DNA of 64,000 bases, taken from the NCBI GenBank assembly GCA_963614875.1, contig CAVEFC010000001.1, positions 99,808 through 163,807 of the forward strand, given 5' to 3'. The DNA comes from an uncultured Eubacteriales bacterium. GTDB lineage: Bacteria > Bacillota > Clostridia > Oscillospirales > CAG-272. Positions 22,796 to 40,112 of the stretch are shown here, in pieces. A model generated the notes under the pieces. That model searched no databases, was not told the origin of the DNA, and worked only from the letters and a program-made list of their open reading frames with translations. The position numbers and the translations under genes were made by a program. Each line of letters begins with the position of its first letter. The stretch's first letter is position 1.

Positions 22796-22840
22796 ACAAA
22801 CAAAGAAGATGGGCTGGTCTCCGGACCCGGGTCCACCTGC

Positions 22841-22869: not shown

Positions 22870-22881
22870 AGAGGAGTGTAA

Positions 22882-23568: not shown

Positions 23569-23585
23569 AAATTAAAGAATATAAT

Positions 23586-23619
23586 AAAAATCGCTGCCTG
23601 ACAAGCAGCGATTTTCTTT
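23586..23619. terminator. Bidirectional terminator between convergent genes
   Basis: AAAAATCGCTGC-ctgacaa-GCAGCGATTTTCTTT. Confidence 0.7.
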
Positions 23620-23997: not shown

Positions 23998-24099
23998 ATC
24001 AACCTCCGTAAACTGTTTGGTTGAATATAGTATTGACCAAATTAAATGAAAATCTGCAAAGTTGATTGATGCAGCGATATTTGGTGCACATAAGCAGTC

Positions 24100-24148
24100 A
24101 GTTATCGGGGCATATTTTTACAAAGTTAAGATTTATGCCCCGATAACT
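24100..24148. repeat. 14-bp perfect inverted repeat
   Basis: AGTTATCGGGGCAT (24100-24113) and ATGCCCCGATAACT (24135-24148). Confidence 0.8.
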
Positions 24149-24178
24149 TGGCAAATCAATATATAAGCCCACCTTCTT

Positions 24179-25099
24179 TCAGATCTCAGACCAATCGATG
24201 AACACATAAAGATAATAATCCTCAAGGGTTGCCGGAACATTTGCCGCCGTTTCCGTCGGTCTGATATCCGAAAGAACCCGCAACCTGACGGATTGCAAAT
24301 CGTCCTCATCGCGCGCAATGCTTATCACGCGGTGCTTTTCCTGCATGGAAAAAATATCTTTTTCGCTTACGGGTATGCTCCATACCTTGCCGTCGATTTT
24401 TTTGATCAGCTCATGCGGAGGAGCTTTTTCAATTATAACGCCATTTTTCAGCATGATAATATCACGCGCGATGAACTCAACGTCGCTCACAACATGCGTT
24501 GCGATTATGACAATTTTGTTCAACGCTATCTGCGAAATATAATTCCGTATGGCGATTCTCTGCTTTGGGTCAAGCCCAGCTGTCGGTTCGTCGAGTATAA
24601 GGATTGAAGGGTTACCGAGAACTGCCTGCGCGAGCGCAAGTCGTTGCTTCATTCCGCCGGACAGCGCTCCGATTCTGCGTTTTGAAACGTCGTCCAGCTC
24701 AACCGCAATAAGTATTTCGTTTATCTGTTCGGCTATATATTGCTTTCTTTCTTTTGTCCCGAGCTCACAGCCGACGTCCTTTAAGGTTGCCATATACCAC
24801 ATAAAGCTTTCAACGGTGAAGTTCGGATAAAACCCCGGATACTGCGGCATAAACCCCAGCTTTTTTCGGAATTCTGCGCCGAGCTTTTTTATGTTTTCCG
24901 GAGCTTTCCCGTCGTCACCGAAGAAAATCTCGCCGGAATCGGCTTTCAGATTATCTGTAATAATATTCATAAGCGTCGATTTCCCCGCTCCGTTAGGGCC
25001 CAAAAGCGCATATATTCCGGGCTGAAAATCTGCGGAAAAGCAGGAAAGCGCCTGATTTTTACCGTATGCCTTGCTTAACTCTTTAATGGATAAAATCAT
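24179..25099 (-). CDS. ABC transporter ATP-binding protein
   Basis: Walker A GPNGAGKST, signature LSGGMKQR, Walker B ILILDEP. 306 aa. Confidence 0.9.
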   Translation of the reverse strand: MILSIKELSKAYGKNQALSCFSADFQPGIYALLGPNGAGKSTLMNIITDNLKADSGEIFFGDDGKAPENIKKLGAEFRKKLGFMPQYPGFYPNFTVESFMWYMATLKDVGCELGTKERKQYIAEQINEILIAVELDDVSKRRIGALSGGMKQRLALAQAVLGNPSILILDEPTAGLDPKQRIAIRNYISQIALNKIVIIATHVVSDVEFIARDIIMLKNGVIIEKAPPHELIKKIDGKVWSIPVSEKDIFSMQEKHRVISIARDEDDLQSVRLRVLSDIRPTETAANVPATLEDYYLYVFIDWSEI

Positions 25100-27429: not shown

Positions 27430-27469
27430 AACCGCTGCCCTTTCTTTTTTTTGAATGTACCTTTGTTTT

Positions 27470-28615
27470 TTATTTCGGCACTTTGGTTTCTTCTCCCGTT
27501 TTCAGATTCTGTGCAATCCGGCGCGACACGGGACTGCCCGACGAATAATCGGTTTCCGTATATACAATATAATTGTCACCAAGTGCGATATAGCATCTTG
27601 AAATCTCTTTATCCTGAAGATCATAAACCTCTCTTGACGAGCCGGTTTCAAACGAATATTCGTAAAGAATATGCGAATACTCTTCCACAGCCGAGCCTAC
27701 TTCGCGCGGCTCGGAAAGATAATAATAAAACTTATCGCCGCAGTTCATTCCCATACTTACGTTTGACAATATCTTTTCCTTCTTTGAAACATCGGAAATC
27801 GGACAGCTGATAATATCCACCGTCATATACGACGCCCCGTCAAACTCCGTTGCCTGAAGGTTATCGCAATATACGATGTAATCATTTGCAATAAACATCT
27901 CTGCTCTCAGGACGATGTTGAAAAGATACTGCGTGTCATCAAGTGCCAAAGAGCATGAAAAAAGCTGTCCGGCAGAGTCAATAAAATAAATACGGTTTTT
28001 ATACACTGTCTCAACACGATAAGACTTCTTATCCGGGTTCTCCATTTTCTTATAACCGCTACCGTCTTTGCCCATCACATGAATATTTGTTCCGTGCTCC
28101 CCTTCGTTTGTCGTATATATTATCCAATCACCGTAAATAGCCAGCGACTGTATATTTTCTGCAATTTCATCCTGTATCACGGTCACTTTGTTTGTGCCTG
28201 TATCAAATGATGTGATCTGATAGAAATTTTTCATTCTGTTTGTTTGCTTGTCAATAGCATATTTGTAATATGCTCCAATCAACACATGCTTGTCATTGTT
28301 TTCTTTGGTTGCTTTCGGATCGACCGCAAAATAAACCGCCGGAGAGAATATATTTGCAAACGGATTTTCTTCGCCGGATGCAAGAACATCTCCATAAAGC
28401 GGAAGTCCCGTCGTCTGAACGTTTGTCAGATCCTGATATTTTATCGAAAACGTGCTTGTGTCATAATAATAAAGAATGTTATCATAAAGATAAATGTTGA
28501 AGCCCTTGGCGCAGACGTCGTCTGTGCTCTGCTCCGGCTTTGAGCACGCGGAAAAAACAAATGCCAAAAGAATAAAAATCGCGAGCAGACATATAGTAGC
28601 TTTGTATTTCTTCAT
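27470..28615 (-). CDS. Lipoprotein, probable beta-propeller (DUF5050-like)
   Basis: Signal peptide plus lipobox (VFSAC). Repeated YY/IYY..D motifs. 381 aa. Confidence 0.5.
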   Translation of the reverse strand: MKKYKATICLLAIFILLAFVFSACSKPEQSTDDVCAKGFNIYLYDNILYYYDTSTFSIKYQDLTNVQTTGLPLYGDVLASGEENPFANIFSPAVYFAVDPKATKENNDKHVLIGAYYKYAIDKQTNRMKNFYQITSFDTGTNKVTVIQDEIAENIQSLAIYGDWIIYTTNEGEHGTNIHVMGKDGSGYKKMENPDKKSYRVETVYKNRIYFIDSAGQLFSCSLALDDTQYLFNIVLRAEMFIANDYIVYCDNLQATEFDGASYMTVDIISCPISDVSKKEKILSNVSMGMNCGDKFYYYLSEPREVGSAVEEYSHILYEYSFETGSSREVYDLQDKEISRCYIALGDNYIVYTETDYSSGSPVSRRIAQNLKTGEETKVPK

Positions 28616-28723
28616 AAATATCTCCTTGCCACAAAATCAGTAATAAATGAGCCAAAAAACGTTTCTGTGCAAATAGCGGAGGTTGTAAAATCATAGATAT
28701 ACAGCCTCCGCACGAGCTATGTA

Positions 28724-29191
28724 TTAATTAAAAACAGAAATTTCAATACTGGGAGGATTAAACGACACAGTTGAGCCCGGAACGGTCGCATAATATGTCC
28801 CTTTCAAAAATGTGATCCCGCTTTCCTGAGAGAGGCGAACATCTTCAGTGCGGATGAATTGGCCTATAATAACCCGATCCTGTGAAGCAACAATAGGAGT
28901 AAGCAACGTTACACCCGATCCTGTGACAATTATTTGCATATCAAGCAAAGTATAGGTCGGTGTGCCGTTTCCCGTCGGGTCAAATCTGTTTGTCGCAAAA
29001 ATTCTTTGAAAAGCATATACGCCAGATTCCGTATATTTGTTTGCCTGGAGAGAGCCCAACACCGTAAACGTCGGGTCATCCGTATTGCGTGTATACTCCA
29101 TATAATGCATAGCATTTGCCGTAACGCAAAATGCAAACATAGAAATAATCAGCAGAGTAGCTGTAATGATTCTGAACAAATTCTTTTTCAT
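28724..29191 (-). CDS. Secreted protein of unknown function
   Basis: N-terminal signal peptide (MKKNLFRIITATLLIISMFAFCVTANA). 155 aa. SD gaaagga. Confidence 0.5.
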   Translation of the reverse strand: MKKNLFRIITATLLIISMFAFCVTANAMHYMEYTRNTDDPTFTVLGSLQANKYTESGVYAFQRIFATNRFDPTGNGTPTYTLLDMQIIVTGSGVTLLTPIVASQDRVIIGQFIRTEDVRLSQESGITFLKGTYYATVPGSTVSFNPPSIEISVFN

Positions 29192-29491
29192 GGTTATGAT
29201 TTCCTTTCAAATAAATTTTTAATTTTTCCTTCGGTAAGCGGATAACCAAAACTCGAGATTGCCTGATTATCCGCCCCAACAAATGATTTGCAGGCGATGA
29301 CCAGCGGAAGCGAAAACGCCCGTCAATCGCGAAAAAACAACACATTCGACATACTTCTTCAGCGAAATCATCTTCAACACCCCCACCCGAATGATATATC
29401 GTGCGCAGTGCTTGCAACAATGTTTTATGTTCACAATATTTCCAATATTATATTATCATATATTGTGGCATTTGTCAATTAAGTTCAACAA

Positions 29492-29635
29492 ATATTTTGT
29501 TGTAAGCAATGTTGGCAACGCGGTGTTTGCCAAACTTTGACGAGCACTCATTCTATTCGCTACTTCATACTACCACGCGAAATCAATTTTGTCAAGTATA
29601 TTTTGTCACAAGCAATATTGACAACACGATATTTG
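29492..29635. repeat. Two diverged 38-bp direct repeats upstream of padR
   Basis: Copies at 29492-29529 and 29598-29635 match at 30 of 38 positions. Most differences are G-to-A. Confidence 0.75.
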
Positions 29636-29646
29636 TATGATATAGT
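29603..29646 (+). promoter_or_regulatory. padR promoter with overlapping palindromic operator
   Basis: TTGTCA-N10-TGACAA palindrome (29603-24). TTGACA (29618-23), 17 nt, TATAGT (29641-46). Confidence 0.55.
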
Positions 29647-29685
29647 AGATTTACACTATTAAGCGCTTAAATAGGTGAAAGAAAA

Positions 29686-30060
29686 ATGATACAAAGAAAC
29701 GACATTGAAGAAAACCTCAAAAGGGGAATTCTCGAAATGCTCATTCTGAAAATGCTGTCGCAAGAGGATATGTACGGCTATCAGATGATAAACGAAATGA
29801 ATATAAGAGGAAAGGGGCTGATAGACATCAAAGAGGGGTCTTTGTACGGTCCCCTATATCGACTCATCGGCAAAAACTATATTTCCGAAAACAAAGTCCT
29901 TGTAGGAAAGCGCAGAACGCGCGTTTATTACCACCTTGAACCACTTGGAGTCGAATATTTAGACACGATAATCGATGTATATTCAAAAATCATCGAGGGT
30001 GTAAATCTGATTATGAATTATTCTGCAGAGGAAAAACAAAATGAAGAAAACAATCAATAA
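29686..30060 (+). CDS. PadR-family transcriptional regulator
   Basis: GILEMLILKMLSQEDMYGYQMINEM...GSLYGPLYRL is the PadR wHTH pattern. Confidence 0.85.
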   Translation: MIQRNDIEENLKRGILEMLILKMLSQEDMYGYQMINEMNIRGKGLIDIKEGSLYGPLYRLIGKNYISENKVLVGKRRTRVYYHLEPLGVEYLDTIIDVYSKIIEGVNLIMNYSAEEKQNEENNQ

Positions 30061-30409
30061 AGATATTAAAAAGTATTGCTCCGAAGTGAAAAAGCTGCTC
30101 GCTTGTCCGGGTGGTATAAAATTTGCATTCATATCGGAGCTTAAAAACAGAATTTATGAATATATCGAAGAACACCCTGATGATGAAATAACAATCAACG
30201 ATATTGAAAACAGGTTCGGCACACCCAAGGACATTGCATCATCATTTGCGTCGGCAGAAGATATGCAGCGCCTGCACAAAAAGGCAAAGAAATACACATT
30301 TTATAAGATATTATCGGTAGCTCTTTTGCTGACGCTTATTCTTACCATATACATATTAGCATATCTTGTTACCAATGAGTACACAATTATTGTTACAAAT
30401 GATTTTTAA
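30041..30409 (+). CDS. Membrane-anchored PadR-associated protein (DUF1700-like)
   Basis: Overlaps the padR end. Soluble N-domain (ELKNRIYEYIEEHPD...FGTPKDIASSF) plus one C-terminal TM, the usual gene partner of PadR. Confidence 0.5.
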   Translation: MKKTINKDIKKYCSEVKKLLACPGGIKFAFISELKNRIYEYIEEHPDDEITINDIENRFGTPKDIASSFASAEDMQRLHKKAKKYTFYKILSVALLLTLILTIYILAYLVTNEYTIIVTNDF

Positions 30410-30433
30410 AAACTATTCTTGAGGAGAATTCCT

Positions 30434-30937
30434 ATGAAAAAACATATATTTTCAATTTTACTAACATTCTTTCTTGTGTTTACATCAATGCTATCTTCTT
30501 TCGCCGCAAGCAATGTTATACCAAACACTTCAAAATCAACTGCCACCATATATTTAAATGACGGAAGATATATTGTGGTAACACTCATAACAGATGATAT
30601 ATCTTCATTATCACTTAATTCAAGGCAATCAACATCTTTTACAAAAATCGGAAACAAGTTTGCTACTTGTTATGACAAGAATAATAATCTCGAATGGAAA
30701 TATACTTTATCTGCTGAATTTTCTGTAGTAGAAGGAGTTTCGGCAACCTGCACAAACGCTACATATACACAAACAATTTACGCAAGCGGCTGGTCTTTCA
30801 GTAATGGCAATGCCACAAAATCCGGTAACACTGCATATGGCGCAGGAACTTTCAAGAAAAAAGTGTTATTCGTGACGACAAACACTGTAAATATCGACAT
30901 AAACATTTCCTGTGACGCATACGGCAACCTTTCATGA
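30434..30937 (+). CDS. Secreted protein of unknown function
   Basis: ATG 30434 with a gaggag SD. Signal peptide MKKHIFSILLTFFLVFTSMLSSFA. Confidence 0.5.
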   Translation: MKKHIFSILLTFFLVFTSMLSSFAASNVIPNTSKSTATIYLNDGRYIVVTLITDDISSLSLNSRQSTSFTKIGNKFATCYDKNNNLEWKYTLSAEFSVVEGVSATCTNATYTQTIYASGWSFSNGNATKSGNTAYGAGTFKKKVLFVTTNTVNIDINISCDAYGNLS

Positions 30938-31057
30938 TGTAGGTTTATTTGAAATTTGCAATATTTTATTGAGCGATAACGCCAGATCCTTTTTTAATCC
31001 CAAAATTTGTATCAAATAATTCAAGGCATGAGAAAAGCGATATATAACAATTGTAGA

Positions 31058-31933
31058 TCAGTGTATTGTATTTACTTTGAACATACAGATACTATAATTG
31101 TTACTCTTCTCCATAAACTCTACAGTTATTTGATTTATATACATCCTGCTCAGCGCCGAACTGCCGAGATACGCCTCCACATTCGTCACGGGCAGGACGC
31201 ACCAATCGCTGTCGGTTGGTTTGTTGGCGATATAGTATTCAAGCAGTGTCCTTGTTACATTCAGGGGAACAGACTTCGGTGTAACCTCCGCAAGCCACTT
31301 TTCCTGTTCGGCGGTCAATCGGATAGATTCTGTCCGAAGCGCGCCAAGCTCCAGTGCATCGGCAATCACATCATCAAAACGAAGGATCAGGTCGCCTTTC
31401 GTGCCTTCCGCGAAGATCGATATCTGAAACTGAATGACCTTTTTCCGCCATGCGTCTTCGAGCTTTTCCATGTTGTCGGCAAGTTTATGTGTGGCTTTGC
31501 CCACTTTGTCGCGGTTGGTGTTTATGAAATCCGCGATGCCGCGCAGGTGGCGGATATACCATCCACAGCCGTTCTTGTCTATAAGTTCGGGAAACGCATC
31601 GTGAAGCTCACGGAAATCTGTTTTGAGCTGCCACTCCGCCTTTGGGGTGGCATTCTTTCTGTCAGGGATACTGCACCATGCGCAGAGAGCACGGCGGGCA
31701 TCGTCGGTGCGCTCATACGGATCACCGCCTTTCGGTGTCCCGTCCGGGTTGTGAAAGAGATATCCCCTCGCAAGGACAGTCAATATCCGCGCGAAACCGT
31801 AGTTTTCCATGAGCATATCCAGGGTAAACCGACCGAGAAAGCCGTTGTCCTTCTTGTTTCGGACGGCATAGGTCGGTTCTTTGGTATAGGAGAGAAACTC
31901 TGCCCATTCGTTTGTTATTGATTCCTCTATCAT
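31058..31933 (-). CDS. Hypothetical protein, translationally coupled partner of the RdRP/YonO-like polymerase
   Basis: 291 aa. Its start ATG overlaps the polymerase stop (ATGA). I recognised no family. Confidence 0.6.
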   Translation of the reverse strand: MIEESITNEWAEFLSYTKEPTYAVRNKKDNGFLGRFTLDMLMENYGFARILTVLARGYLFHNPDGTPKGGDPYERTDDARRALCAWCSIPDRKNATPKAEWQLKTDFRELHDAFPELIDKNGCGWYIRHLRGIADFINTNRDKVGKATHKLADNMEKLEDAWRKKVIQFQISIFAEGTKGDLILRFDDVIADALELGALRTESIRLTAEQEKWLAEVTPKSVPLNVTRTLLEYYIANKPTDSDWCVLPVTNVEAYLGSSALSRMYINQITVEFMEKSNNYSICMFKVNTIH

Positions 31934-34900
31934 CCGTTTCCGCCTCCGATCAGATAAAATTCCGCTTCTTCAAGCAGTACATCAAAGATAAAATCCCGCC
32001 TGTCCATCGCCTCGGCATAGCGGATCGCCTGAAACGGCGGCGTGATCTTTGCAAGGCACAACCGACAGGCGGTGGCTACCGCCTCACGGTAATCCACGCC
32101 CGGCAAACGGGTGTGGTAAGCGTCGATCATAGCTGTCATTTCGGGCGTGTCGTTTTTGTAGTGCAGTTTGCTTTTGTCAGCCAACCTGTTGGTGTCGTCA
32201 ATATCGCAGATAATGTCACCGAACACCCGGTACCCGCCCATGCGGAAATCCGAGAACAAGCCGTCATACGCCCGAAAAGCCTCTTCGGGTAGGTATTCTT
32301 GTAGAAAGGATAAACGCTCCTCCGGCTTCATGAAATGCCACTGTTCGGCTCGCAGCGCGTCACGGACGGTCTTAATTCGGGCGGCGGCGATTCCCGTGAA
32401 CAGTGCATACAGGCTGTCGGTATCATAGGTGTTTTCCTGATTCCGCATGGTCAGAATACGGTCAATGTCCCGGCGCTTGGAATTGCCCGGCGTCGGGTGC
32501 TTGCGCGACCGAATGCGTCGCAGGCAATGGTCATAGGTGTCGATAAGTTCCCGAATCGGCTGGAACAGTGACGGGTCAAGATTATCTTTCCAATTCGAAT
32601 GCCTGGCAAAAGTGAACAGTTCTGCGGATGGCGCAGGTTTTATCACTTTTCGCGGCGTGTGCTTTTTCAGCATGTGGGCATAGTATGGCAGCTTCTCTAC
32701 ATTTGCCGTGACGCTCTCCCAGTCTGTCCCGTCGATATAATCCTTCATTTGTTCCGCAAAGGTGTCCTCATACCATGCAGGGCGATCTTCCGCATCCTCA
32801 AGCAGTCGCTTGTATTTCAGATACCGGCTGCATGGCTTGTCGTCAGTGTGCAGGTATGCCGACAGGTCGGGCTTGATACCGCTTTTGGCAGAGTCGATCT
32901 CAAGTCCCGTCAGGATAGCAAGCGTTTCGCTTTCCTGTCTGCACTTTTCCTTGATGTCGGCATCTGCATTTTCATCGTAAGCGAGAATACTGCGGTCAAG
33001 CGCGGCATTGGAAATCTGCCCGACGCGCGAGGAAAAGGTGCTCTTGACTGCCTCAAACCGAGCGTGCAGGTCATTTGCATCCCACAACTGCGGTTCGGCG
33101 GTCGGAATACTGAGCAGGGGCAGATTGTTACGGCTTGCGAATCTGTCTTCAAATGGATTTGCCGTTTCCTTATAGTGAGAGGCAATGCTTTCACAGATCA
33201 CCGGCTCATAGATCACCTTTACCATATCCCCGTCATAGTCCGCCCCGCCGAGCCGTTCGGCAATGAGCGACCACGGTTCTACCATTACGACACCGGACAG
33301 GTGCGAAAGATACCGACGGCGGATGCCATGTTCATGGCTTTGCGGATATACCACGACCTCCTCGTTCTTTGCAATATGCGGATTGCGTAGGATCGCCGTC
33401 ATGTGACTGCCGGTCAGTCCGTATGCGGTTGTATAGCGGCAACGCGCGTCAAGCAACTCCCGGTAGATTTCCTCCGCATTTCTGTTGCCGTCTGTATAGG
33501 GTTTTAGCAGTTCGGCAAGAAACAAGGTCAGATCCGCCGAAAGATAGGCAACCCCTCCGCGCACGAGCAGATTGCCGCGGGCAAAATTCCGCAAAACGGT
33601 ATTTGCGGCGCGGTCAAGCTCCCGCCGGTACTCTTTTTCCGCGAGCAAAAGGTCATTGCGGTGAAGCATCCCGGCAAGGCGGTAACCCCGGCTTCTCGGA
33701 TTTTTCGGTGCATGGTCGACATAGTAGTCAAATTGAAACCATTCGTCGTTGAGAAGGCGATAGTAGATCTCCTCGGTCGTTTTGGTCAGCCACGCTCCGG
33801 TATCGCTGTCGTTTTGTTCGTCCTCTTTGTCCATACGGTCTTTCATCCAATCAAACGGCAAGCCAACCGGTCTGAACTGTTCACCACTCAGAGCGAGCGT
33901 AGAAAGGAACTGATAGTTCAGATCGGTAGACTGTTCACTATCCGTGCGGTTCACACCCGTAATATACAGCGTGTGACGGTAGGCGCGCAGGCGTTTCAGA
34001 TATTCCGAAAAGGACAGCCCGTTTTCCGTCATCCAACCGCATCCCTTGAATTGGCTCCTCGTCAGAATCATCCGGACGCGTTCAATAGGATGCTCCACAC
34101 CCCACAGATCCGTGATTTTCGTGACGGTTGCCTCACGGAACAGTCCGTGAAAGTCCACCTCATGCACCATGCCCTTGATATACGGCATCCGGATCTGGAA
34201 CGAGGTATGAATGTGCTTTCCGCAGTACAACCGATCGATCTCTTCCGCAAGCGCAGGGGAAAGAATGCCTTCGCCGTCAAACAGCGTGACTTTTACATCG
34301 CTCTTTTTCTCCACTCTCTCGTAGTTGCGAACATCGCCGATACCTGTCCTATCTTCCACGGTAATGACATCCACATCCGGATAGACAGCCGTCGGATTGT
34401 CGATGACAACGATCGCATCCTTGTCCCACAGCATATCCGTTTCAATGCGTGTTCCGCTCGAAAACAGCAGACCGTTATAGGCGTAGAGCTTGGACAATTG
34501 GCAAACGCCAAGTGTCATGCCGACTGTCATACGGCGGGAAAGCTCCTCATATATATCCGCGCGGACAAAAGAAAGCATAGCGCTGCGGCTCATACTGCCC
34601 GAGCGTTCAAAGGCGAGATAGCGTGCGTCTCCCTGACCGAAGTTCAATGTAATCCCCTCCGGGGAAAACATGGCTTCGGTCTTTTTTTGCATGAGCGCCG
34701 CTTTCGGGTTATCCGCATCCCGATCAAATATTCCTTTGAAGTCAAGATAGAGTATTACATCCGCAAGATCGGAGATCGGCGTGTCCGAGGTGGATTGCTT
34801 GTATTTCTCCCCGCGGAGGATGCACATAGCCTGAAAGAAAATGGCGTTGTCCTCCTGCCAGGTATCACCGTCTCCCATGATGATGCTTTTCGTCTGCGCC

Positions 34901-35001
34901 GGCGTCAGTGCAAAAGAATAGGTGCCCTGATCGATTGGTTTAGCATAGGGCAGCATAGCCTGCACCGACAGTCGCCGTATAAGATATCTGAGTTTCGCCA
35001 T
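31930..35001 (-). CDS. Two-barrel RNA polymerase homologue of the eukaryotic-type RdRP / phage YonO family
   Basis: Start set at the second ATG (35001), which has GGAGG 5 nt upstream. Motifs: SFQIRMPYIKGMV (34165-34200), RNPH (33376-33387), GGADYDGDMV with DYDGD at 33226-33240, VGQISNAAL (32998-33024), LEIDSAKSG (32878-32904). Confidence 0.8.
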   Translation of the reverse strand: MAKLRYLIRRLSVQAMLPYAKPIDQGTYSFALTPAQTKSIIMGDGDTWQEDNAIFFQAMCILRGEKYKQSTSDTPISDLADVILYLDFKGIFDRDADNPKAALMQKKTEAMFSPEGITLNFGQGDARYLAFERSGSMSRSAMLSFVRADIYEELSRRMTVGMTLGVCQLSKLYAYNGLLFSSGTRIETDMLWDKDAIVVIDNPTAVYPDVDVITVEDRTGIGDVRNYERVEKKSDVKVTLFDGEGILSPALAEEIDRLYCGKHIHTSFQIRMPYIKGMVHEVDFHGLFREATVTKITDLWGVEHPIERVRMILTRSQFKGCGWMTENGLSFSEYLKRLRAYRHTLYITGVNRTDSEQSTDLNYQFLSTLALSGEQFRPVGLPFDWMKDRMDKEDEQNDSDTGAWLTKTTEEIYYRLLNDEWFQFDYYVDHAPKNPRSRGYRLAGMLHRNDLLLAEKEYRRELDRAANTVLRNFARGNLLVRGGVAYLSADLTLFLAELLKPYTDGNRNAEEIYRELLDARCRYTTAYGLTGSHMTAILRNPHIAKNEEVVVYPQSHEHGIRRRYLSHLSGVVMVEPWSLIAERLGGADYDGDMVKVIYEPVICESIASHYKETANPFEDRFASRNNLPLLSIPTAEPQLWDANDLHARFEAVKSTFSSRVGQISNAALDRSILAYDENADADIKEKCRQESETLAILTGLEIDSAKSGIKPDLSAYLHTDDKPCSRYLKYKRLLEDAEDRPAWYEDTFAEQMKDYIDGTDWESVTANVEKLPYYAHMLKKHTPRKVIKPAPSAELFTFARHSNWKDNLDPSLFQPIRELIDTYDHCLRRIRSRKHPTPGNSKRRDIDRILTMRNQENTYDTDSLYALFTGIAAARIKTVRDALRAEQWHFMKPEERLSFLQEYLPEEAFRAYDGLFSDFRMGGYRVFGDIICDIDDTNRLADKSKLHYKNDTPEMTAMIDAYHTRLPGVDYREAVATACRLCLAKITPPFQAIRYAEAMDRRDFIFDVLLEEAEFYLIGGGNG

Positions 35002-35027
35002 GGAGACCTCCGTAATTGTTTTTTTAT

Positions 35028-35056
35028 AGTATACCATAGATTGCCGAGAAAATCAA
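35028..35056 (-). promoter_or_regulatory. Promoter of the polymerase operon
   Basis: Minus strand: TTGATT (35056-35051), 17 nt, TATACT (35033-35028) with a TGG extension. Confidence 0.6.
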
Positions 35057-35299
35057 TTTGTATCTTTATAACTACTCCCATATTGTTAAGAAAATGCAAA
35101 AGCAAACAAACTGGTATCTGTATAAAAATGGCGTAACAAGCGGAACAGATAAAACTCCGGTTGCCGGTTTTTGTTTCGTTTGTTACGCCAAATTCAGATA
35201 AGCAGGTGCTTTCTTTTCGCAGAATTGTATTTATAAATACTGCTCACATATCATCGGAAAGGAGGAAAAGCGAATGATAGAAATTGCGGACAATATACA

Positions 35300-35460
35300 C
35301 GGGTCGTAGCGAGACGACTTCCCGCTTCAGCGGGGCAAGCAGAGCGTTTGGACTCCCACCGCCAAAGGCGGTCGGAGCCAAACGCATTATTTTTTCGGGC
35401 GGAAGCCCGAACCCACTTGCCTTTTCTTTGAGAAAAGAAAAGGGTAAGCCAAAAGAAACG
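35300..35460 (+). promoter_or_regulatory. Highly structured intergenic region upstream of mobC; candidate oriT
   Basis: Consecutive hairpins: GTCGT..ACGAC, CCCGC-ttca-GCGGG, a long stem GCGTTTGG..CCGCC-aaa-GGCGG..CCAAACGC (35344-35385) followed by a T-run, TTCGGGC-gga-GCCCGAA, and CTTGCCTTTTCTTT-gag-AAAAGAAAAGGGTAAG. Confidence 0.35.
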
Positions 35461-35497
35461 AATTTAATTATATCAATTTTCAGAGAGGTGATTTACA

Positions 35498-35842
35498 ATG
35501 GCGACCAAAGGTCGCAAACGAAACAGAAAAAAGTCCTTTTGGGTGACAGACAGCGAATGGAAAGCAATTGAAAAGATTGCCGCCGGTATCGGCATGGGCA
35601 TCGGTGAATATCTTCGCATCTCTGCACTCGGCAAGACAATCTATCAGATTGAAGAATTGAAGCCGGTTCTTCATGAGCTGAAATGTATCAGCCGCAATCT
35701 CAATCAGCTTACCATGCTTTCACATCAGGGCGTGGTGCGGACGGTCAATCTGACCGCAACGGCGGATGGCATCGGTCGGTGCTTTGAGGCAATCAACAAG
35801 CTGTACGCCGACACCGATGCGGTGATACAGGGTGGAGGTTGA
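35498..35842 (+). CDS. mobC: MobC-type relaxosome accessory protein (ribbon-helix-helix)
   Basis: KKSFWVTDSEWKAIEKIAA...LKCISRNLNQLTMLSHQG is typical of MobC/bacterial mobilisation proteins. Immediately upstream of the relaxase. Confidence 0.75.
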   Translation: MATKGRKRNRKKSFWVTDSEWKAIEKIAAGIGMGIGEYLRISALGKTIYQIEELKPVLHELKCISRNLNQLTMLSHQGVVRTVNLTATADGIGRCFEAINKLYADTDAVIQGGG

Positions 35843-35848
35843 TGTTCT

Positions 35849-38002
35849 ATGGCAACCGTTATTTTCATCAAGGAGAGCAAGCAGACGCCGAGTGCCATGC
35901 GCGGTTGTATCCGTTACTGCGTGCAGGAGAATAAAACCGTTGACGAAAACGGGAGGCAGTATGTCGGCGGTGTCAACTGCCTCGGTCAGCACGCTTATCA
36001 AGAATTCATGGCAACCAAAAATCTTTACGGCAAAGCCGATGGCACTTACTTCTATCAGTATGTGCAGTCATTTCTGCCGGGGGAAATTCAGTCTTACGAA
36101 GAAGCTCACCGCATCGGTCTGGAATTTGCCGGGAATTCCTTTCAAGGATATGAGGTCTTGGTTGCCACGCATCTGGACGCTTACGATGACGGCGGCGTTC
36201 AGAGAGTACACAACCATTTTATTGTCAATTCGGTCGGCTTTGAGGACGGCAGGAAGATTCACTTCACGCCGAACACCTTGCAGGAACTGCGGAAGATCAG
36301 CGATGACATCTGCCGTGACCACGGTCTGTCTGTGCTGCCTCCGTCGGAGCGCAGAAACGGTCAGGGCATCGGTACGCGGGAGTACCATGCAACGATGAGA
36401 GGCGAGGGATGGAAGTTCGGGCTGATCAATGACATTGACACTGCCATGACGCAGGCAGGCGACAGACGCGAGTTTTGTGATATCCTTGCTTCTGTCGGTT
36501 ATTCCGTTACCTGGACGGAGGAAAGAAAATATATCACATTCACCTGTCCGAACGGGCGCAAGGTTCGTGACAACAAATTACACGACAACAAATATACCAA
36601 GGAGAATTTAGAGTATGAATTCAGAATACGAAAACAAATTACAGAACACGCCGGCAGTCAGTTCCATGGACAAACTGAAAGCAGCATCCAGAACGGCAGT
36701 CAAGACAATCGAGGAAACACCGTATCAGCCGATTGTTTATGCGATTCCGAAGGAGGATTGGAACGCCTTTCGGGAATGGACGAAACAGGCGGTGACATTT
36801 CAACCCACGCTGTATCAGCAGATAGCGGCACTGACGACCAAGAAGGAATCAGAGGCTTACACGGACGAGATATGGAGCGAAATCCGGAATTGGGCGGAGG
36901 AGGTGACCGGAAACGTGCAGAAAACAGCGGAGAGCATTGTGCCGAGAGTGCAGACGCTGTTGAATCAGAACAAGGAGCTACTCGAACAGGATGGGAGGAT
37001 GCGCGAGCAGTTTATCTCAGGTCTCGACTTGAAGGAAACCAATCGCATCAAAGAATTCAAAGATCTGCTTATGGGTATGAAGCGGTGGATCATCACGGCG
37101 ATTGCATCGACCATCGGCGGTTCGGCGATTTTAAGTACGGTGATCTGTCTTCTGATGAGATAACAGCGTTCTTCAAAAGCGAACGGAAAGAAACCGACCT
37201 GCCCGATGACGAACCGACAGAAACGGAAGATCTGACACAGAGAAAATACAATGATCTGCGGGAGCAGGCGGAGCTTGGTAACCTATATGCCGGGTGCCGT
37301 CTCTCCTGTATTTTGTTTGACGAGGACAGTCCGTACTACGATGCGTACGGCGGCGCATATTACCTTGAATCCTCCGCAAAGCAGGGCTACCATGTGGCGC
37401 AGTATCGGCTCGGCAAGATGATCTATGAGGGTGGTTATTACCGTCGTATTCCCGAGAACGCCGAGTATTGGCTTTTGCTGTCCGCAAGGCAGAACAACCC
37501 GTATGCCGAGGCATTGCTGGGGCGATTGTACCTCATCGGAGATTTTCTACACCTTGACCGCAAGGCTGGCGTCGATCTTCTGTACGATGCAATACGCCAT
37601 GGGAACGCTCACGCTGCATATACGCTCGGCAAATATTACGCCGACGGAAAGTACCTGAAAAAAGACATTCCGAAAGCTGTCGCGCTTTTGGAGCAGGCGG
37701 CGCAGATGGGCGACCTTCATGCGGAGTACAGGCTCGCCAAGATCTATCTCTTTGAGTCGGACTGTTTTGATTGGCAGAAAGCCGTGGAGTATCTGAACAC
37801 GGCTGCGCACAAGGGCAACGAAAATGCCTATCGGGCATTGCAGAACATGAGCCAAAGCACGGTGATCTCTATCACCACCGGCATTGCCGACCTGGTCGGC
37901 GATCTGTCTGCTGTGTTCGATGAAAGACCGGCGGTGGAGGATTGCACTACCATGCCGGAACGCAGGGAAAGGAAGAAATATGAGTATGAGCAGAGTTTAT
38001 AG
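35849..38002 (+). CDS. Relaxase/mobilization nuclease fused to a C-terminal Sel1-like repeat domain
   Basis: N-terminal relaxase domain with HLDAYDDGGVQRVHNHFIVN (His-triad type). Low-complexity middle. Multiple Sel1/TPR-like repeats from ~37270 (AQYRLGKMIYEG..., AAYTLGKYYADG..., AEYRLAKIYLFE...). Confidence 0.7.
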   Translation: MATVIFIKESKQTPSAMRGCIRYCVQENKTVDENGRQYVGGVNCLGQHAYQEFMATKNLYGKADGTYFYQYVQSFLPGEIQSYEEAHRIGLEFAGNSFQGYEVLVATHLDAYDDGGVQRVHNHFIVNSVGFEDGRKIHFTPNTLQELRKISDDICRDHGLSVLPPSERRNGQGIGTREYHATMRGEGWKFGLINDIDTAMTQAGDRREFCDILASVGYSVTWTEERKYITFTCPNGRKVRDNKLHDNKYTKENLEYEFRIRKQITEHAGSQFHGQTESSIQNGSQDNRGNTVSADCLCDSEGGLERLSGMDETGGDISTHAVSADSGTDDQEGIRGLHGRDMERNPELGGGGDRKRAENSGEHCAESADAVESEQGATRTGWEDARAVYLRSRLEGNQSHQRIQRSAYGYEAVDHHGDCIDHRRFGDFKYGDLSSDEITAFFKSERKETDLPDDEPTETEDLTQRKYNDLREQAELGNLYAGCRLSCILFDEDSPYYDAYGGAYYLESSAKQGYHVAQYRLGKMIYEGGYYRRIPENAEYWLLLSARQNNPYAEALLGRLYLIGDFLHLDRKAGVDLLYDAIRHGNAHAAYTLGKYYADGKYLKKDIPKAVALLEQAAQMGDLHAEYRLAKIYLFESDCFDWQKAVEYLNTAAHKGNENAYRALQNMSQSTVISITTGIADLVGDLSAVFDERPAVEDCTTMPERRERKKYEYEQSL
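36615..37163 (+). CDS. Embedded +1-frame ORF, MobB-like (coiled-coil protein with C-terminal TM anchor)
   Basis: AAGGAG SD 8 nt upstream of the ATG. 182 codons with protein-like composition and a terminal hydrophobic helix (WIITAIASTIGGSAILSTVICLLM). The overlapped relaxase frame is low complexity here. Confidence 0.5.
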   Translation: MNSEYENKLQNTPAVSSMDKLKAASRTAVKTIEETPYQPIVYAIPKEDWNAFREWTKQAVTFQPTLYQQIAALTTKKESEAYTDEIWSEIRNWAEEVTGNVQKTAESIVPRVQTLLNQNKELLEQDGRMREQFISGLDLKETNRIKEFKDLLMGMKRWIITAIASTIGGSAILSTVICLLMR

Positions 38003-38085
38003 TATCACATTTTTATTATCTGAATTATTTTCTCTTGAAGGGAGGAAAATATATCTGAACAATCCTGAAAGAACGAGGTAACCGG

Positions 38086-38265
38086 ATGGGGAAAGTTATA
38101 ACTGACGAAGAACGCGAAAAACGCATGGCAGAGGATATGTGGCTTAATTATTTCAATCGTTATCTGTTTGAGAGCGGTACAATCTCAGAGAAAGAATACA
38201 AGAGAATGACCGAAAAGATTGCCGCAAGAAAAGCAAAACGCTATCCTGAAAGGGACGCAAGGTGA
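38086..38265 (+). CDS. Small conserved-looking protein (59 aa), not in the supplied ORF track
   Basis: ATG 38086 with GAGG 8 nt upstream. Translation: MGKVITDEEREKRMAEDMWLNYFNRYLFESGTISEKEYKRMTEKIAARKAKRYPERDAR. Lies just upstream of the recombinase. Confidence 0.5.
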   Translation: MGKVITDEEREKRMAEDMWLNYFNRYLFESGTISEKEYKRMTEKIAARKAKRYPERDAR

Positions 38266-38309
38266 GCGGGTTCACCTCGGAGTGCTTAAAGCACTCCGAT
38301 ACATAAATG

Positions 38310-38334
38310 TTTGTCAAAGATATTATTTGACAAA
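38310..38334. promoter_or_regulatory. Perfect 9-bp inverted repeat (candidate operator) upstream of the recombinase promoter
   Basis: TTTGTCAAA-gatatta-TTTGACAAA. Confidence 0.5.
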
Positions 38335-38348
38335 TTTCGATTTCTGTA

Positions 38349-38377
38349 TTGCAATATAAGGTCGATTGTGGTATAAT
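38349..38377 (+). promoter_or_regulatory. Recombinase promoter
   Basis: TTGCAA, 17 nt, TATAAT with a TGG extension. Confidence 0.55.
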
Positions 38378-38423
38378 GCAATCAATAGATAATGATAAAA
38401 CGAATTTACGAAAGGGCGATGAT

Positions 38424-40112
38424 ATGGATATCTTAAATATCAGAGCATTATTACGAACCAAATCAATATATGATATCCCCCTGCGGGTCACATATTACGC
38501 GCGCGTTTCTTCTGAAAGTGATGAACAGCTCAACTCACTCGATAACCAGATTGCATATTATGAAGACTTGATCAGGAGAAACCGCGCATGGACATATGTT
38601 CCGGGTTATGTTGACGAGGGGCTTTCCGGTATCTCTACAAAGAAGAGAAAACATTTCAATGAGATGATTGCTGATGCTAAGGAGGGTGCATTTGACCTAA
38701 TTATAACAAAGGAAATTTCCCGATTTGCCCGTAATACGCTTGACTCTCTGCAATATACAAGAGAATTGCTCGGATGGGGAGTGGGCGTATTTTTTCAAAA
38801 CGATAACATCAATACGCTTGATGAAGATGCAGAGCTTCGGCTTACAATTATGTCCTCCATCGCGCAGGATGAGCTTCGCAAGCTCTCCTCGCGTGTCAAA
38901 TTCGGGCATCAGCAAGCTATCAAGTCCAATGTGGTTCTTGGCAACAGCCGTATCTTCGGATATAAAAAGGATGAAAAACGCCTTGTCATTGACGAAAGCC
39001 AGGCGCCGATGGTGCGCGATTTGTTCAGGCTTTACGCGACAGGCGAATACAGCATGAAGCAACTCGAAACGCTGTTTTACGAACAGGGGTACCGTAATTA
39101 CAACGGCAACAAAATTGCTCATACCACAATGTCGGGTATCATATCCAATCCGAAATATAAGGGCTATTATGTGGGCAACAAGGTTCGTATTGTGGATATG
39201 TTTACAAAAAAGCAGAAGTTTTTGCCTCCTGAAGAATGGGTCATGTTTAAAGATGAAACAGGAGAAATTGTCCCCGCCATCGTATCCGAGGAACTATGGG
39301 ATAAAGCAAATGAGGTATTGACCCGCAGAAGTGAGGATGTTAAAAACCGTCAGGGTATCTGCAACCACGCCAATCTCCTGACAGGAAAATTATACTGCGC
39401 CCATTGCGGTGCCGCATATTACCGCCGTGAATCCAAAAGCAAGGACGGCACGGTCAATTCCAAATGGGTCTGCTCCGGAAAGATAAACAACGGTGCTGAT
39501 TCCTGCCCATCTTTCCCAATCTACGAGGATGAGATTAAGCCCATCCTGTTTGAGGTGTTCAGCGAAACACGGGTGGATGTGGAAGCCCTGCTTGCAAACT
39601 ACGAGGAAATGTTCCGGTCAATGGAAGCAGATGATGAAACCGCGGGGCAGATGGAAGAACAAAAGCGGATTATAGCACTTGCCGACCAAAAGAAAAATAA
39701 ACTTCTCGAGCTTGTAACGACAGGCGCCATTACGACGGCAAATTTCAAATCCATGACCGCCTCATGCGACAGGGAAGCGGAGGAAGCGCAGAAAACGCTC
39801 ACGGAACTTGAAGAGCAACTGTTTACAAAAGAGGAATACCGCAAGCACATCGGCGAGGTAAAAGCAAGACTCGATGCTGCTGTCCGTGACGCAAGCACAG
39901 GTATGATTACAAACGAATTTGTTGCCCAATATATTGATAAAATCATAGTCACATCAGACGGAAATGATACAGCGAAGCTTGAAATCAAGATATTTACGGG
40001 CAAAAACACGGAAAAATGGCTCAAAAAGCTCAGTGAACGACATCGGGGTCGTACGGGTGTCATGTCTAAGAAAATGATCGAGTCATATGAAAATTCGATC
40101 AAAACAAAGTAA
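38424..40112 (+). CDS. Large serine recombinase (TnpX/SpoIVCA-type)
   Basis: Catalytic domain YARVSSESDEQLNSLDNQ...ISRFARN, recombinase domain, Cys-rich zinc ribbon (CAHCGAAYY...WVCSG) and a coiled-coil. The last 15 codons are host ssp sequence. Confidence 0.9.
   Translation: MDILNIRALLRTKSIYDIPLRVTYYARVSSESDEQLNSLDNQIAYYEDLIRRNRAWTYVPGYVDEGLSGISTKKRKHFNEMIADAKEGAFDLIITKEISRFARNTLDSLQYTRELLGWGVGVFFQNDNINTLDEDAELRLTIMSSIAQDELRKLSSRVKFGHQQAIKSNVVLGNSRIFGYKKDEKRLVIDESQAPMVRDLFRLYATGEYSMKQLETLFYEQGYRNYNGNKIAHTTMSGIISNPKYKGYYVGNKVRIVDMFTKKQKFLPPEEWVMFKDETGEIVPAIVSEELWDKANEVLTRRSEDVKNRQGICNHANLLTGKLYCAHCGAAYYRRESKSKDGTVNSKWVCSGKINNGADSCPSFPIYEDEIKPILFEVFSETRVDVEALLANYEEMFRSMEADDETAGQMEEQKRIIALADQKKNKLLELVTTGAITTANFKSMTASCDREAEEAQKTLTELEEQLFTKEEYRKHIGEVKARLDAAVRDASTGMITNEFVAQYIDKIIVTSDGNDTAKLEIKIFTGKNTEKWLKKLSERHRGRTGVMSKKMIESYENSIKTK
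40049..40088 (+). other. attR junction (core AA at 40068-40069)
   Basis: Element arm CGTACGGG-TGTCATGTCT-AA, followed by host GAAAATGATCGAG.... Confidence 0.65.
40070..40112 (+). pseudogene. ssp: Displaced 3-prime end of the ssp gene (encodes ..KKMIESYENSIKTK*)
   Basis: Joining 22387-22541 to 40070-40112 gives ...GSVGGQMVKKMIESYENSIKTK. This matches the SASP consensus GS(V/Y)GG.MVK(K/R)M(I/V)E and gives a 65-aa length. Confidence 0.7.

Follow-up and report, generated by a model that had tools for sequence, protein, structure and literature searches.

A single-chain RNA polymerase of the two-barrel type and a partner protein of about 290 residues are encoded side by side, on an integrative mobilizable element (IME), in the 64-kb stretch of DNA analysed here (the window). 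Comparison with related loci leaves little doubt that this pair is a core module of a very large IME family from gut and rumen Clostridia, and not the cargo that the sequence-only reading had taken the polymerase to be; polymerase and partner are the most conserved block of the family, and it is the real cargo that varies. As to function, we tentatively favour, by analogy with other mobile elements, the view that the pair makes RNA primers on the single-stranded DNA of the element.

Identity and active site of the polymerase

The polymerase gene occupies positions 31930–35001 of the window on the (−) strand and was characterised by Pfam, BLASTP, AF2 and Foldseek. Its product contains all five landmark motifs from which membership of the RdRP/YonO family had been proposed, in the order given (SFQIRMPYIKGMV, RNPH, GGADYDGDMV, VGQISNAAL and LEIDSAKSG), and the profile, structural and loop-conservation checks suggested with that proposal bear it out. 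The protein matches the Pfam RdRP profile (PF05183) with 56.1 bits (E 3.6e-15), above the cutoff of 23.8 bits, and matches YonO by BLASTP (2e-14) and tblastn (about 4e-9). Its AF2 model (pLDDT 85, pTM 0.80) has RDR2 and QDE-1 as its sole significant Foldseek matches (E 4e-15 to 4e-11, probability 1.0), with a sequence identity of 12–15% and TM of 0.38–0.47. In an alignment of 46 sequences with identities down to 23%, residues D588/D590/G591/D592 of the DxDGD loop are invariant, as are R539/P541/H542, Q269/R271/K276/G277 and D703/K706. Given the Pfam E-value, more than 1400 homologues and 1291 representative clusters, chance resemblance is far exceeded. We conclude that the protein is very probably a single-chain two-barrel member of the eukaryotic-RdRP/YonO superfamily of RNA polymerases, and that its active site, judged from sequence and predicted structure, is complete and conserved.

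The reading frame stays open from 31930 to 35037 (−), a span of 1035 codons, and the likely start is the ATG at 35001, which yields the 1023 residues noted earlier. This start is favoured because a Shine-Dalgarno sequence, GGAGG (35007–35011), lies 5 nt upstream, because the homologues are 1015–1023 residues long, and because the alternative upstream ATG at 35037 falls within a promoter-like site. That site, a sigma-70-like candidate at 35028–35056 (−) with the sequence TTGATT-17-(TG)TATACT and a TG-extended −10, had been described as the gene's own strong promoter. The sequence is indeed there; with a consensus score of 9/12 and a chance-level background of 5.6 comparable sites in shuffled sequence of the region, it is a plausible promoter whose strength is unproven.

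The partner protein

The partner gene (291 residues; 31058–31933, (−) strand) is translationally coupled to the polymerase gene, its start overlapping the polymerase stop codon by 4 nt, and had been overlooked in the earlier reading. Together they make up a two-gene operon. More than 2600 homologues of the partner were found, none with a name or a Pfam family, and we assign it to an uncharacterised family. Its AF2 model (pLDDT 90.6, pTM 0.90) predicts a new alpha-helical fold with a winged-helix-like C-terminal domain; the resemblance of the C-terminal ~85 residues to winged-helix DNA binders comes from weak wHTH matches (E about 0.5) that are not significant. The best match among viral models is to a protein named 'RNA polymerase subunit' in UniProt (E 0.025, probability 0.87). 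Divergent partner homologues still follow polymerases of only 28–36% identity, and the pairing is therefore ancient.

Organisation of the element

The non-phage context of the polymerase is confirmed: the gene lies in an IME of ~17.5 kb (22540–40068), which is inserted in a spore-protein (SASP) gene. Its left and right crossover cores, both TAA, are at 22539–22541 (attL) and 40067–40069 (attR), accompanied by the imperfect inverted repeats CCCGTACGA at 22552–22560 and TCGTACGGG at 40049–40057 respectively. Divergent from the polymerase, as had been observed before, are the (+)-strand genes for a NikA/MobC-like relaxase accessory protein (35498–35842; PF21983, 2.7e-14) and a MobA/VirD2-type relaxase of 717 residues with C-terminal Sel1/TPR repeats (35849–38002; PF03432, 6e-29). 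A Pfam search detected no primase domain in the relaxase, in agreement with the earlier reading. They are followed by a large serine recombinase, the integrase (38349–40112, (+); Resolvase, Recombinase and Zn_ribbon_recom domains), whose reading frame continues past attR into the SASP gene that serves as target, at its 3′ end.

DNA similarity to relatives spans exactly the segment from partner to recombinase (31130–40103), and the cargo differs. In this copy the variable cargo (22542–31057), which is not conserved in relatives, comprises DUF3800 with its RNA motif, an ABC ATPase with proteins of 777, 381 and 155 residues of no known function, and PadR-DUF6120 with a 172-residue ORF; its GC content is 0.36–0.45, compared with 0.51–0.54 in the element core. 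One related locus carries TnpV and CAT.

The polymerase-partner pair adjoins an oriT-like region and diverges from the nikA and relaxase genes. Nearest the polymerase is a strong hairpin with 19-nt arms (35129–35190), retained at the site that a DUF927 helicase gene occupies in relatives; in this copy the helicase gene, whose place would be between 35083 and 35099, is absent. The oriT-like core itself, upstream of nikA (35318–35412), has two to three hairpins around an invariant GGGCAAGCAGAG-N-GTTTGG (35333–35351) that is unique within the window. Elements whose NikA proteins are about 50% identical share this conserved core, which folds as single-stranded DNA at −34.6 kcal/mol (z = −7.0); its hairpins are kept, with few informative changes. 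Apart from this core, no sso-like or template element conserved past close relatives was found.

Conservation of the neighbourhood

The survey of homologue contexts covered 146 non-redundant Clostridia loci, with the partner scored in 122 and the upstream 6 kb in 72. The partner adjoins the polymerase in 117 of the 122 (96%). Mobility genes lie within 6 kb upstream of the polymerase in 70 of 72 loci; relaxases are found there in 60 (83%), divergent from the polymerase wherever present, and integrases in 61 (85%). The phage (YonO-like) relatives stand apart: 1 of 41 loci has the partner, and none of 34 has a relaxase. Relaxases of the MobA/VirD2 or MobL type interchange, as do serine and tyrosine integrases, and the position and orientation of the polymerase relative to the relaxase are fixed over about 55% sequence divergence.

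This fixed placement, across different relaxase and integrase families, speaks against a selfish or hitch-hiking pair with no role in the element life cycle, or a polymerase fold recruited non-catalytically. Chromosomal YonO-like proteins have been termed enigmatic (PMC2919709), as might befit such a pair, but intact copies of the genes occur in hundreds of species, and even between deeply diverged members no metal-binding or basic residue of the active site varies. We regard this explanation as highly improbable.

A helicase-like ATPase, of the DUF927/Cch-like or AAA_25/DnaB-like type, is encoded within 6 kb upstream in 26 of the 72 loci (36%) and often directly adjoins the polymerase. In some relatives the adjoining gene encodes a DUF927 P-loop protein, and in two loci (L159 and L036) AAA_25/DnaB_C ATPases lie directly upstream. 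No primase is present among the 25 commonest of the 41 Pfam families found in 103 neighbouring ORFs, which leaves room for a rare one.

Proposed function

Transcription or priming on the transferred strand, as envisaged in the sequence-only reading, is compatible with the conserved neighbourhood and favoured by it. Polymerase and partner would act together as a complex, using the DNA of the element itself as template for RNA, and the winged-helix-like C-terminus of the partner would supply DNA-site recognition. The likeliest job would be primer synthesis on the single-stranded form of the element. Rolling-circle replication driven by the relaxase, and conjugative transfer, would give rise to this form, which would have to turn double-stranded before the serine recombinase could integrate it. 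With an RNA polymerase of its own, the element would depend neither on host RNAP acting at an sso nor on a DnaG/AEP primase. For this copy, which has no helicase gene, the host would have to supply a helicase. Polymerase action might be confined to the donor, and not occur in the recipient before second-strand synthesis.

Several observations support primer synthesis. Such elements are known to need priming of the second strand, for which others use host RNAP acting at an sso, the host's primase or a primase of their own (PMC4595007), and QDE-1 uses DNA as well as RNA templates (PMC9508822). DUF927 is the Cch/SaPIbov1-Rep helicase type, which elsewhere partners a polymerase and small-protein primase in serine-recombinase elements (PMC10061031, PMC7581432). 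The DUF927 and AAA_25/DnaB_C neighbours, the lack of a recurrent conventional primase, the primase-free relaxase and, weakly, the partner's C-terminus point the same way. The case is weakened by the minority of loci that have a helicase, by the non-significant winged-helix assignment, by the lack of an sso-like element beyond the oriT-like core, and by YonO, the sole characterised bacterial-world relative, being a transcriptase of double-stranded DNA and not a primase.

YonO is also the basis of the main rival, which we consider possible but rather unlikely: an element-specific, YonO-like transcriptase acting on double-stranded element DNA, with the partner as a sigma-like promoter-specificity factor. 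Its targets could be the nikA-relaxase-recombinase operon or post-excision genes, and the element could then be expressed in many hosts without relying on their sigma factors or regulators. YonO, a detectable homologue, transcribes the late genes of SPbeta (PMC5467207); the partner resembles DNA-binding proteins at its C-terminus (a weak match) and has the 'RNA polymerase subunit' viral match; and the strongly conserved non-coding core upstream of nikA could be a promoter instead of, or besides, an oriT. However, the conserved motif occurs once in the element, so that at most one operon could depend on it, the polymerase gene's own promoter candidate is of the ordinary sigma-70-like kind, and phage YonO-type enzymes function without this partner. 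A role in replication or transfer accounts better than gene expression does for the replicative-type helicases and varied relaxases that recur as neighbours. The small size of the elements, and variable cargo genes that run both ways, also count against a transcriptase.

A conflict system, as the sequence-only reading had also suggested, appears improbable. It would produce antisense RNA, double-stranded RNA or a nucleotide signal, either protecting host or element against phages or competing elements or countering host defences. Members of the eukaryotic RdRP family amplify silencing RNAs, and defence and anti-defence genes are frequent near the oriT of mobile elements; an AbiEii toxin gene lies near one polymerase locus (L081) and a NERD/UvrD-like helicase near a distant member (L210). 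PADLOC, however, gave no match for polymerase, partner or neighbours, and no partner of Argonaute, Dicer or nuclease type is conserved. Only the partner protein is an invariant neighbour, with relaxase and integrase next; such a pattern is a signature of element maintenance and not of a shuffled defence island.

Comparison with known systems

SPbeta, the Bacillus prophage that carries YonO, integrates through a large serine recombinase into a sporulation-related gene, as does the present element. YonO is likewise a homologous single-chain two-barrel polymerase on a Firmicutes mobile element, a DNA-dependent RNA polymerase that transcribes double-stranded phage DNA (PMC5467207). The two enzymes share about 23–25% identity, in the catalytic core only (residues ~120–640); YonO has 835 residues and gives no Pfam RdRP match at E ≤ 1, compared with 56 bits here. 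Past the stretch that matches phage relatives, the IME clade continues for about 280 residues in a helical C-terminal region, and it is paired with an obligate partner that those relatives lack; its setting is a relaxase-bearing IME, not a phage.

QDE-1 of Neurospora and plant RDR2 share the DxDGD loop and motif order, with DYDGD in QDE-1 and here. Unlike these eukaryotic enzymes, the present polymerase is bacterial, has no Dicer or Argonaute context, adjoins a conjugative relaxase and is paired with a bacterial-only partner.

A parallel in layout is the CcPol-MP-Cch2 module of SCCmec, like the related PolA-SSB-helicase modules a set of polymerase, small partner and helicase, and likewise on a serine-recombinase element (PMC7581432, PMC10061031). 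In such modules the small partner gives the polymerase a new activity, and the helicase is self-loading and of the COG3378 or DUF927 type (PMC7581432, PMC10061031). CcPol belongs to the A family of DNA polymerases and MP is an SSB with an OB fold; neither is homologous to the two-barrel polymerase or its alpha-helical, winged-helix-like partner. The helicase here, moreover, is transcribed in the divergent direction, is found in only about a quarter to a third of the loci and is missing from this copy. The pair would be analogous, not homologous, to the CcPol-MP(-Cch2) primase-helicase module, with a putative primase activity.

A similar role belongs to sso-directed priming by host RNAP, a multisubunit enzyme (PMC4595007). 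The plasmid-encoded conjugative primases RSF1010 MobA/RepB′, RP4 TraC and ColIb Sog have the role proposed here and are encoded near oriT and the relaxase, but their DnaG/Toprim or AEP folds are unrelated to the two-barrel polymerase. Serine-recombinase IMEs of the Tn4451/Tn4453 type in Clostridia likewise combine integrase, relaxase and oriT with no conjugation apparatus; we know of no polymerase gene in those described.

The system had been thought undescribed. In fact a 2010 paper had listed YonO-like proteins in Firmicute chromosomes (PMC2919709), and a 2017 paper had noted them (PMC5467207); for the partner, the linkage to elements and the role, we found no description in the literature. 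An RNA polymerase of the type used in eukaryotic silencing is, with its partner, very probably a core part of hundreds of mobilizable elements, and the pair may make their primers or transcripts.

Identity and fold of the polymerase

The polymerase gene occupies positions 31930–35001 on the minus strand, within a frame that is open without interruption from 35037 to 31930, and its translation contains, in the order given by the sequence-only reading, all five of the motifs that had pointed to an RdRP/YonO-type enzyme. Translation likely starts at the ATG at 35001, because GGAGG lies 5 nt 5' of it, because the resulting length of 1023 aa agrees with that of homologues (1015–1023 aa), and because the in-frame ATG at 35037 sits within a promoter-like site. 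This site (TTGATT-17-TATACT with a TG-extended −10 box; 35056–35028, minus strand) is a plausible promoter for the gene, but the data do not bear out its earlier description as strong; it matches the consensus at 9 of 12 positions, and ∼5.6 sites as good are expected by chance in the region.

The Pfam RdRP profile, PF05183, matches residues 229–758 of the polymerase with 56.1 bits (E = 3.6e-15; gathering cutoff 23.8), and is present in every homologue among the matches listed. A sequence search against PDB chains and a search of NCBIfam gave no match, and matches in PHROGs were limited to two families of unknown function. In an alignment of 46 full-length family members, extending down to 23% identity, residues D588, D590, G591 and D592 of the DYDGD loop (within GGADYDGD) are invariant in 46/46 sequences, as are R539, P541 and H542 of the RNPH motif, Q269, R271, K276 and G277 of QIRMPYIKG, and D242, D703 and K706. 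The invariant features of the superfamily include basic residues from the other barrel, an R..P motif and an additional Asp (PMC2919709); judged from the alignment, the polymerase has these in Q269/R271/K276/G277, R539/P541/H542 and D242.

An AlphaFold2 model built from the same alignment (pLDDT 85.3, pTM 0.80) was compared with the PDB using Foldseek, and matched only plant RDR2 and fungal QDE-1, in 21 chains, with E-values of 3.7e-15 to 4e-11 and probability 1.0. The TM scores for these matches are only 0.38–0.47, as expected for multi-domain proteins, and the next matches, multisubunit RNAPs included, have E > 0.3. The assignment to the RdRP/YonO superfamily thus stands, both on profile and fold similarity and on conservation of the DxDGD loop.

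An obligate partner protein

The polymerase had been recognised from sequence, but the gene directly downstream had been overlooked. This gene (31058–31933, minus strand), the start of which overlaps the polymerase stop by 4 nt, encodes a 291-aa protein that we refer to as the partner. Its homologues number more than 2600; those listed carry no Pfam domain and are named only "hypothetical protein". The partner has no match in Pfam, PHROGs or PADLOC, its profile gives only chance-level matches against PDB sequences, and a tblastn search of 50,697 phage genomes found no match.

The AlphaFold2 model of the partner (pLDDT 90.6, pTM 0.90) likewise has no Foldseek match in the PDB or BFVD at E ≤ 1e-3. 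Its last ∼85 residues form four helices and a β-hairpin and weakly match winged-helix DNA-binding proteins, namely PagR, SmtB/ArsR and the C-terminal domain of CodY, with probabilities up to 0.87 and E ∼0.5, below significance. The best sub-threshold matches in BFVD, A0A8S5PM02 and A0A8S5P5W3, are leads only; one is a gut siphovirus protein with the UniProt name 'RNA polymerase subunit' (E = 0.025) and the other an uncharacterised siphovirus protein (probability 0.97, E = 0.032). On these model comparisons, some phages might carry a very divergent counterpart of the partner.

The partner lies directly 3' of the polymerase in 117 of 122 non-redundant loci. For each of four polymerases of only 28–36% identity (P0144, P0148, P0150 and P0163), the next gene overlaps the polymerase gene and encodes a divergent homologue of the partner (hmmsearch 5e-26 to 5e-6; hhalign 88–98%), which argues that the pairing is old. 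That the partner is obligate, translationally coupled and co-evolving with the polymerase strongly suggests that the two form a two-subunit enzyme.

The integrative mobilizable element

The ends of the element can be read from the gene that it interrupts. An ORF at 22387–22641 begins as an α/β-type SASP but departs from one beyond "...GSVGGQMV" at 22539; the C-terminal part that it lacks, KKMIESYENSIKTK followed by the stop, is found at 40068–40112, fused in frame with the end of the recombinase ORF, which crosses attR such that its last 15 codons are those of the SASP gene. Rejoining the two halves restores a full-length SASP (PF00269, 1.3e-29). A TAA core is common to both junctions, and imperfect inverted repeats, CCCGTACGA and TCGTACGGG, lie just inside them. 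The junctions and the rejoined SASP place the element at ∼22540–40068, in agreement with the 17.5 kb proposed earlier.

The insertion target is thus a gene for spore DNA protection, and it lies beside the host gene spoIIR (from 40183). Intervening elements in sporulation genes are known, for example SPbeta in spsM, and the SASP insertion recalls these. Eubacterium sp. CAG:841 and a second assembly have the same flanking DNA beside the recombinase end of the element, and in a further relative a SpoVT_C domain stands at the end of the ORF for a related recombinase, which suggests, from sequence, an element inserted in spoVT.

Pfam assigns the plus-strand genes upstream of the polymerase to a NikA/MobC-like protein (nikA; 35498–35842), a MobA/VirD2-type relaxase with Sel1 repeats (PF03432; 35849–38002) and a large serine recombinase (38349–40112). 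In these assignments the relaxase shows no primase domain, as noted earlier. Upstream of nikA is a conserved core of ∼95 bp (35318–35412) with two to three hairpins around an invariant GGGCAAGCAGAG-N-GTTTGG motif that is unique in the window; folded as ssDNA it has a free energy of −34.6 kcal/mol (z = −7.0), and relatives show few informative substitutions. We read this core as a candidate oriT. A possible Frpo-like ssDNA promoter at 35002–35300 was discarded; the region does fold better than shuffled sequence (z = −4.2), but owing to a single hairpin outside the −35 and −10 boxes.

With an integrase, a relaxase, an oriT-like core and defined ends in a chromosomal target, the element is an integrative mobilizable element (IME). 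Neither T4SS genes nor phage structural genes were found when its ORFs were scanned with Pfam, so that the earlier impression of a setting outside any phage is borne out.

The remainder of the element is of different character. At its left end a DUF3800 gene (22882–23568) is preceded immediately by a DUF3800-XI RNA motif (22810–22856; RF02975, 53.8 bits against a cutoff of 37.8), the one real match of an Rfam scan that found nothing relevant at the polymerase region. Two cargo blocks together lie in 24179–31000; the first has an ABC-type ATPase (24179–25099) and, upstream of it, three ORFs (777, 381 and 155 aa), none of them matched in Pfam, PHROGs or PADLOC, and the second has PadR–DUF6120 and a 172-aa ORF. 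The GC content of 0.36–0.45 in the cargo, compared with 0.51–0.54 in the polymerase–relaxase core, indicates that the element is a mosaic.

A conserved core module

The sequence-only reading had described the polymerase as cargo. DNA similarity to relatives spans exactly 31130–40103, from the partner through the recombinase, whereas the stretch from 22.5 to 31.1 kb is not common to them, and the polymerase–partner pair must instead be regarded as a core module of the element.

A profile scan of species-representative genomes, scored with iterated HMMs, gave at least 581 loci, and the best-matching are almost all from gut and rumen Clostridia; a few bear the labels Porphyromonadaceae, Sphaerochaetaceae or Bacteroidaceae, although such labels on MAGs are unreliable. 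The non-redundant set comprises 146 loci, with denominators of 122 for the partner and 72 for loci with 6 kb of upstream sequence; all counts are ORF-level HMM matches in a sample biased toward relatives of the query. Within 6 kb upstream there is a relaxase in 60/72 loci, an integrase in 61/72 and a helicase-like ATPase in 26/72, and some such mobility gene in 70/72. The relaxase is always on the strand opposite to the polymerase. Where a PF03432 relaxase is missing, the same position is taken by MobL relaxases, tyrosine integrases, other serine recombinases or AAA_25/DnaB_C ATPases. When 103 upstream ORFs in 20 diverse loci were classified with Pfam, the prevailing families were Relaxase, MobL, Phage_integrase, Resolvase/Recombinase, NikA, MobC and ParB, and none of the 25 commonest was a primase family. 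The linkage is kept whichever of the unrelated relaxase or integrase families is present, and so points to the ssDNA or replication lifestyle as such.

A search for sister elements starting from the relaxase found only seven near-identical loci. Some genomes hold two different copies of the element (L006 and L016 in URUL01; L024 and L162 on contig CAJTGJ010000009.1), and one Ruminococcus assembly has two polymerases, 95% and 51% identical to the window protein. At the locus of the distant homologue P0144 (L210), the pair adjoins a ThiF-family gene and a NERD/UvrD-like helicase, not a relaxase; across the whole family, therefore, the pair is not confined to relaxase-bearing elements.

In 19 of the 72 loci a 584-aa gene lies between the polymerase gene and nikA (for example L001, 8132–9886, a DUF927 P-loop helicase gene), its product having Walker A (GKTGSxKST) and Walker B (CIDDYHP) motifs. 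DUF927 is matched by 9 of the 19 members (best E = 2.2e-5), and one member also matches the Cch HTH domain. In the window this gene is cleanly missing between 35083 and 35099, within a gap of 497 bp, and the 19-bp-stem hairpin that follows the helicase gene in relatives is retained at 35129–35190.

DUF927 helicases are of the Cch type of SCC elements and the SaPIbov1-Rep type (PMC10061031). Where an element has a large serine recombinase, a helicase of this kind is found together with CcPol-MP, a primase made of a polymerase and a small partner (PMC7581432). The CcPol-MP-Cch2 locus combines polymerase, small partner and helicase; here a DUF927/AAA_25 helicase-like gene lies upstream in 26/72 loci, with none in the window. 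The proteins themselves differ, CcPol being an A-family polymerase where ours has the two-barrel fold, and MP an OB-fold SSB where our partner is α-helical, resembles a winged helix at its end and lacks an OB fold.

Relationship to YonO and the eukaryotic RdRPs

The polymerase has a direct sequence relationship to YonO, both in tblastn matches to SPbeta-like phages (∼4e-9) and in pairwise BLASTP against annotated YonO (2e-14; 25% identity over 269 aa). Stronger tblastn matches are to genes annotated "RdRP" in gut Firmicute phages, such as Thomasclavelia phage TR-TP1 (3e-41), and to an uncultured faecal phage (2e-54). PF05183 is matched by IME-clade proteins at 40–57 bits and by the Thomasclavelia phage protein (L086, 1200–3794) at 69 bits, but is not reached at E ≤ 1 by YonO from a B. 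subtilis plasmid (L220, 2602–5109), nor matched by the 1388-aa P0144. Annotation by this profile therefore splits the superfamily unevenly, and the IME clade lies nearer to the eukaryotic-type profile than does the characterised bacterial-world enzyme.

In other respects the window protein differs from YonO. The YonO family comprises stand-alone proteins of ∼800–870 aa from phages and prophages, with no dedicated partner, whereas the window protein has 1023 aa, an obligate partner gene and a setting with relaxase, NikA and serine recombinase. The phage relatives align only to residues ∼115–730, beyond which the window protein extends C-terminally. Of 47 relatives on viral contigs, one is close and 46 are 20–27% identical and matched only in the catalytic core; the partner was found in 1/41 of such loci and a relaxase in 0/34. 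C. perfringens plasmids (35–39 kb), C. botulinum plasmids (∼210 kb) and one B. pumilus plasmid encode unannotated proteins with 22–26% identity to the N-terminal half of the window polymerase; these plasmids are all typed as non-mobilizable and may be phage-plasmids.

YonO transcribes dsDNA (PMC5467207). The main alternative to the function proposed below is that the polymerase is likewise a transcriptase, with the partner as its specificity factor. The winged-helix-like C-terminus of the partner, although below significance, gives it the look of a DNA-binding protein and accords with such a role; we consider this reading possible but rather doubtful. Eukaryotic RNAi RdRPs, for their part, work with Dicer/Argonaute-type machinery, of which no family occurs among the conserved neighbours here. 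In PADLOC neither gene of the pair nor any of five neighbours has a match, and with no positive support for a defence or RNA-amplification module, as once suggested, we regard that reading as improbable.

Proposed function

The genomic comparisons place, in IMEs, an intact two-barrel polymerase and its obligate partner at a fixed position beside a putative oriT and a relaxase, often together with a helicase of replicative type and with no primase recurring among the neighbours. Such a pair would make RNA on the element's own DNA, and we tentatively favour, at somewhat less than even confidence, the synthesis of primers on the single-stranded form of the element. Single-stranded DNA arises in relaxase-driven rolling-circle replication and transfer, and has to become double-stranded before a serine recombinase can act. 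Priming is favoured because IMEs pass through ssDNA that needs this conversion, because the relaxase has no primase domain, because the adjacent helicase parallels the CcPol-MP-Cch2 module, and because QDE-1 can use DNA templates (PMC9508822).

Known routes of priming are host RNAP at an sso, the host primase and element-encoded primases (PMC4595007). A more specific proposal, which we offer as speculative and on balance unlikely, is that the pair is an unrecognised mobile-element replication enzyme, in which a two-barrel RdRP-type polymerase and a DNA-recognition subunit prime the complementary strand of DNA undergoing conjugative mobilisation or rolling-circle replication. If so, it would constitute a fourth route, beside host RNAP at sso, host primase and the DnaG/AEP primases of elements. 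Given its better match to the RdRP profile than that of YonO, the IME clade would then be a candidate for the prokaryotic stock of the RNAi polymerases, and the puzzling ability of QDE-1 to copy ssDNA would be tied to an ancestral primase-like function.

Biological significance

The superfamily was described, and YonO linked to RdRPs, by Iyer et al. 2003, as cited in PMC2919709, where the chromosomal "YonO-like" proteins of Firmicutes were called enigmatic in 2010; in 2017 it was speculated that they transcribe specific gene sets (PMC5467207). The literature that we searched held no description of the obligate partner, of its and the polymerase's constant place next to relaxase and oriT in IMEs, of the helicase association or of the clean split from a partner-less phage clade, and no proposed role in transfer or replication. 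What we describe is neither categorically new nor a mere further member of the family: the enzymes belong to a known family, and what is newly defined is the two-component system that sits at the core of the element.

The enigmatic YonO-like proteins thereby gain a concrete setting, as the obligate two-protein core unit of mobilizable elements at no fewer than 581 loci. Should the pair prime DNA synthesis, or serve as a portable transcription system, conjugative transfer would have a new solution to one of its basic problems, the establishment of the element in many hosts, which bears on gene flow in the gut microbiome. A compact RNA polymerase with its own specificity subunit could also have value as a tool. 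The pair would, in addition, offer a simple and tractable bacterial relative of the RNA-silencing polymerases, and would inform both their origin and the meaning of the DNA-templated activity of QDE-1.
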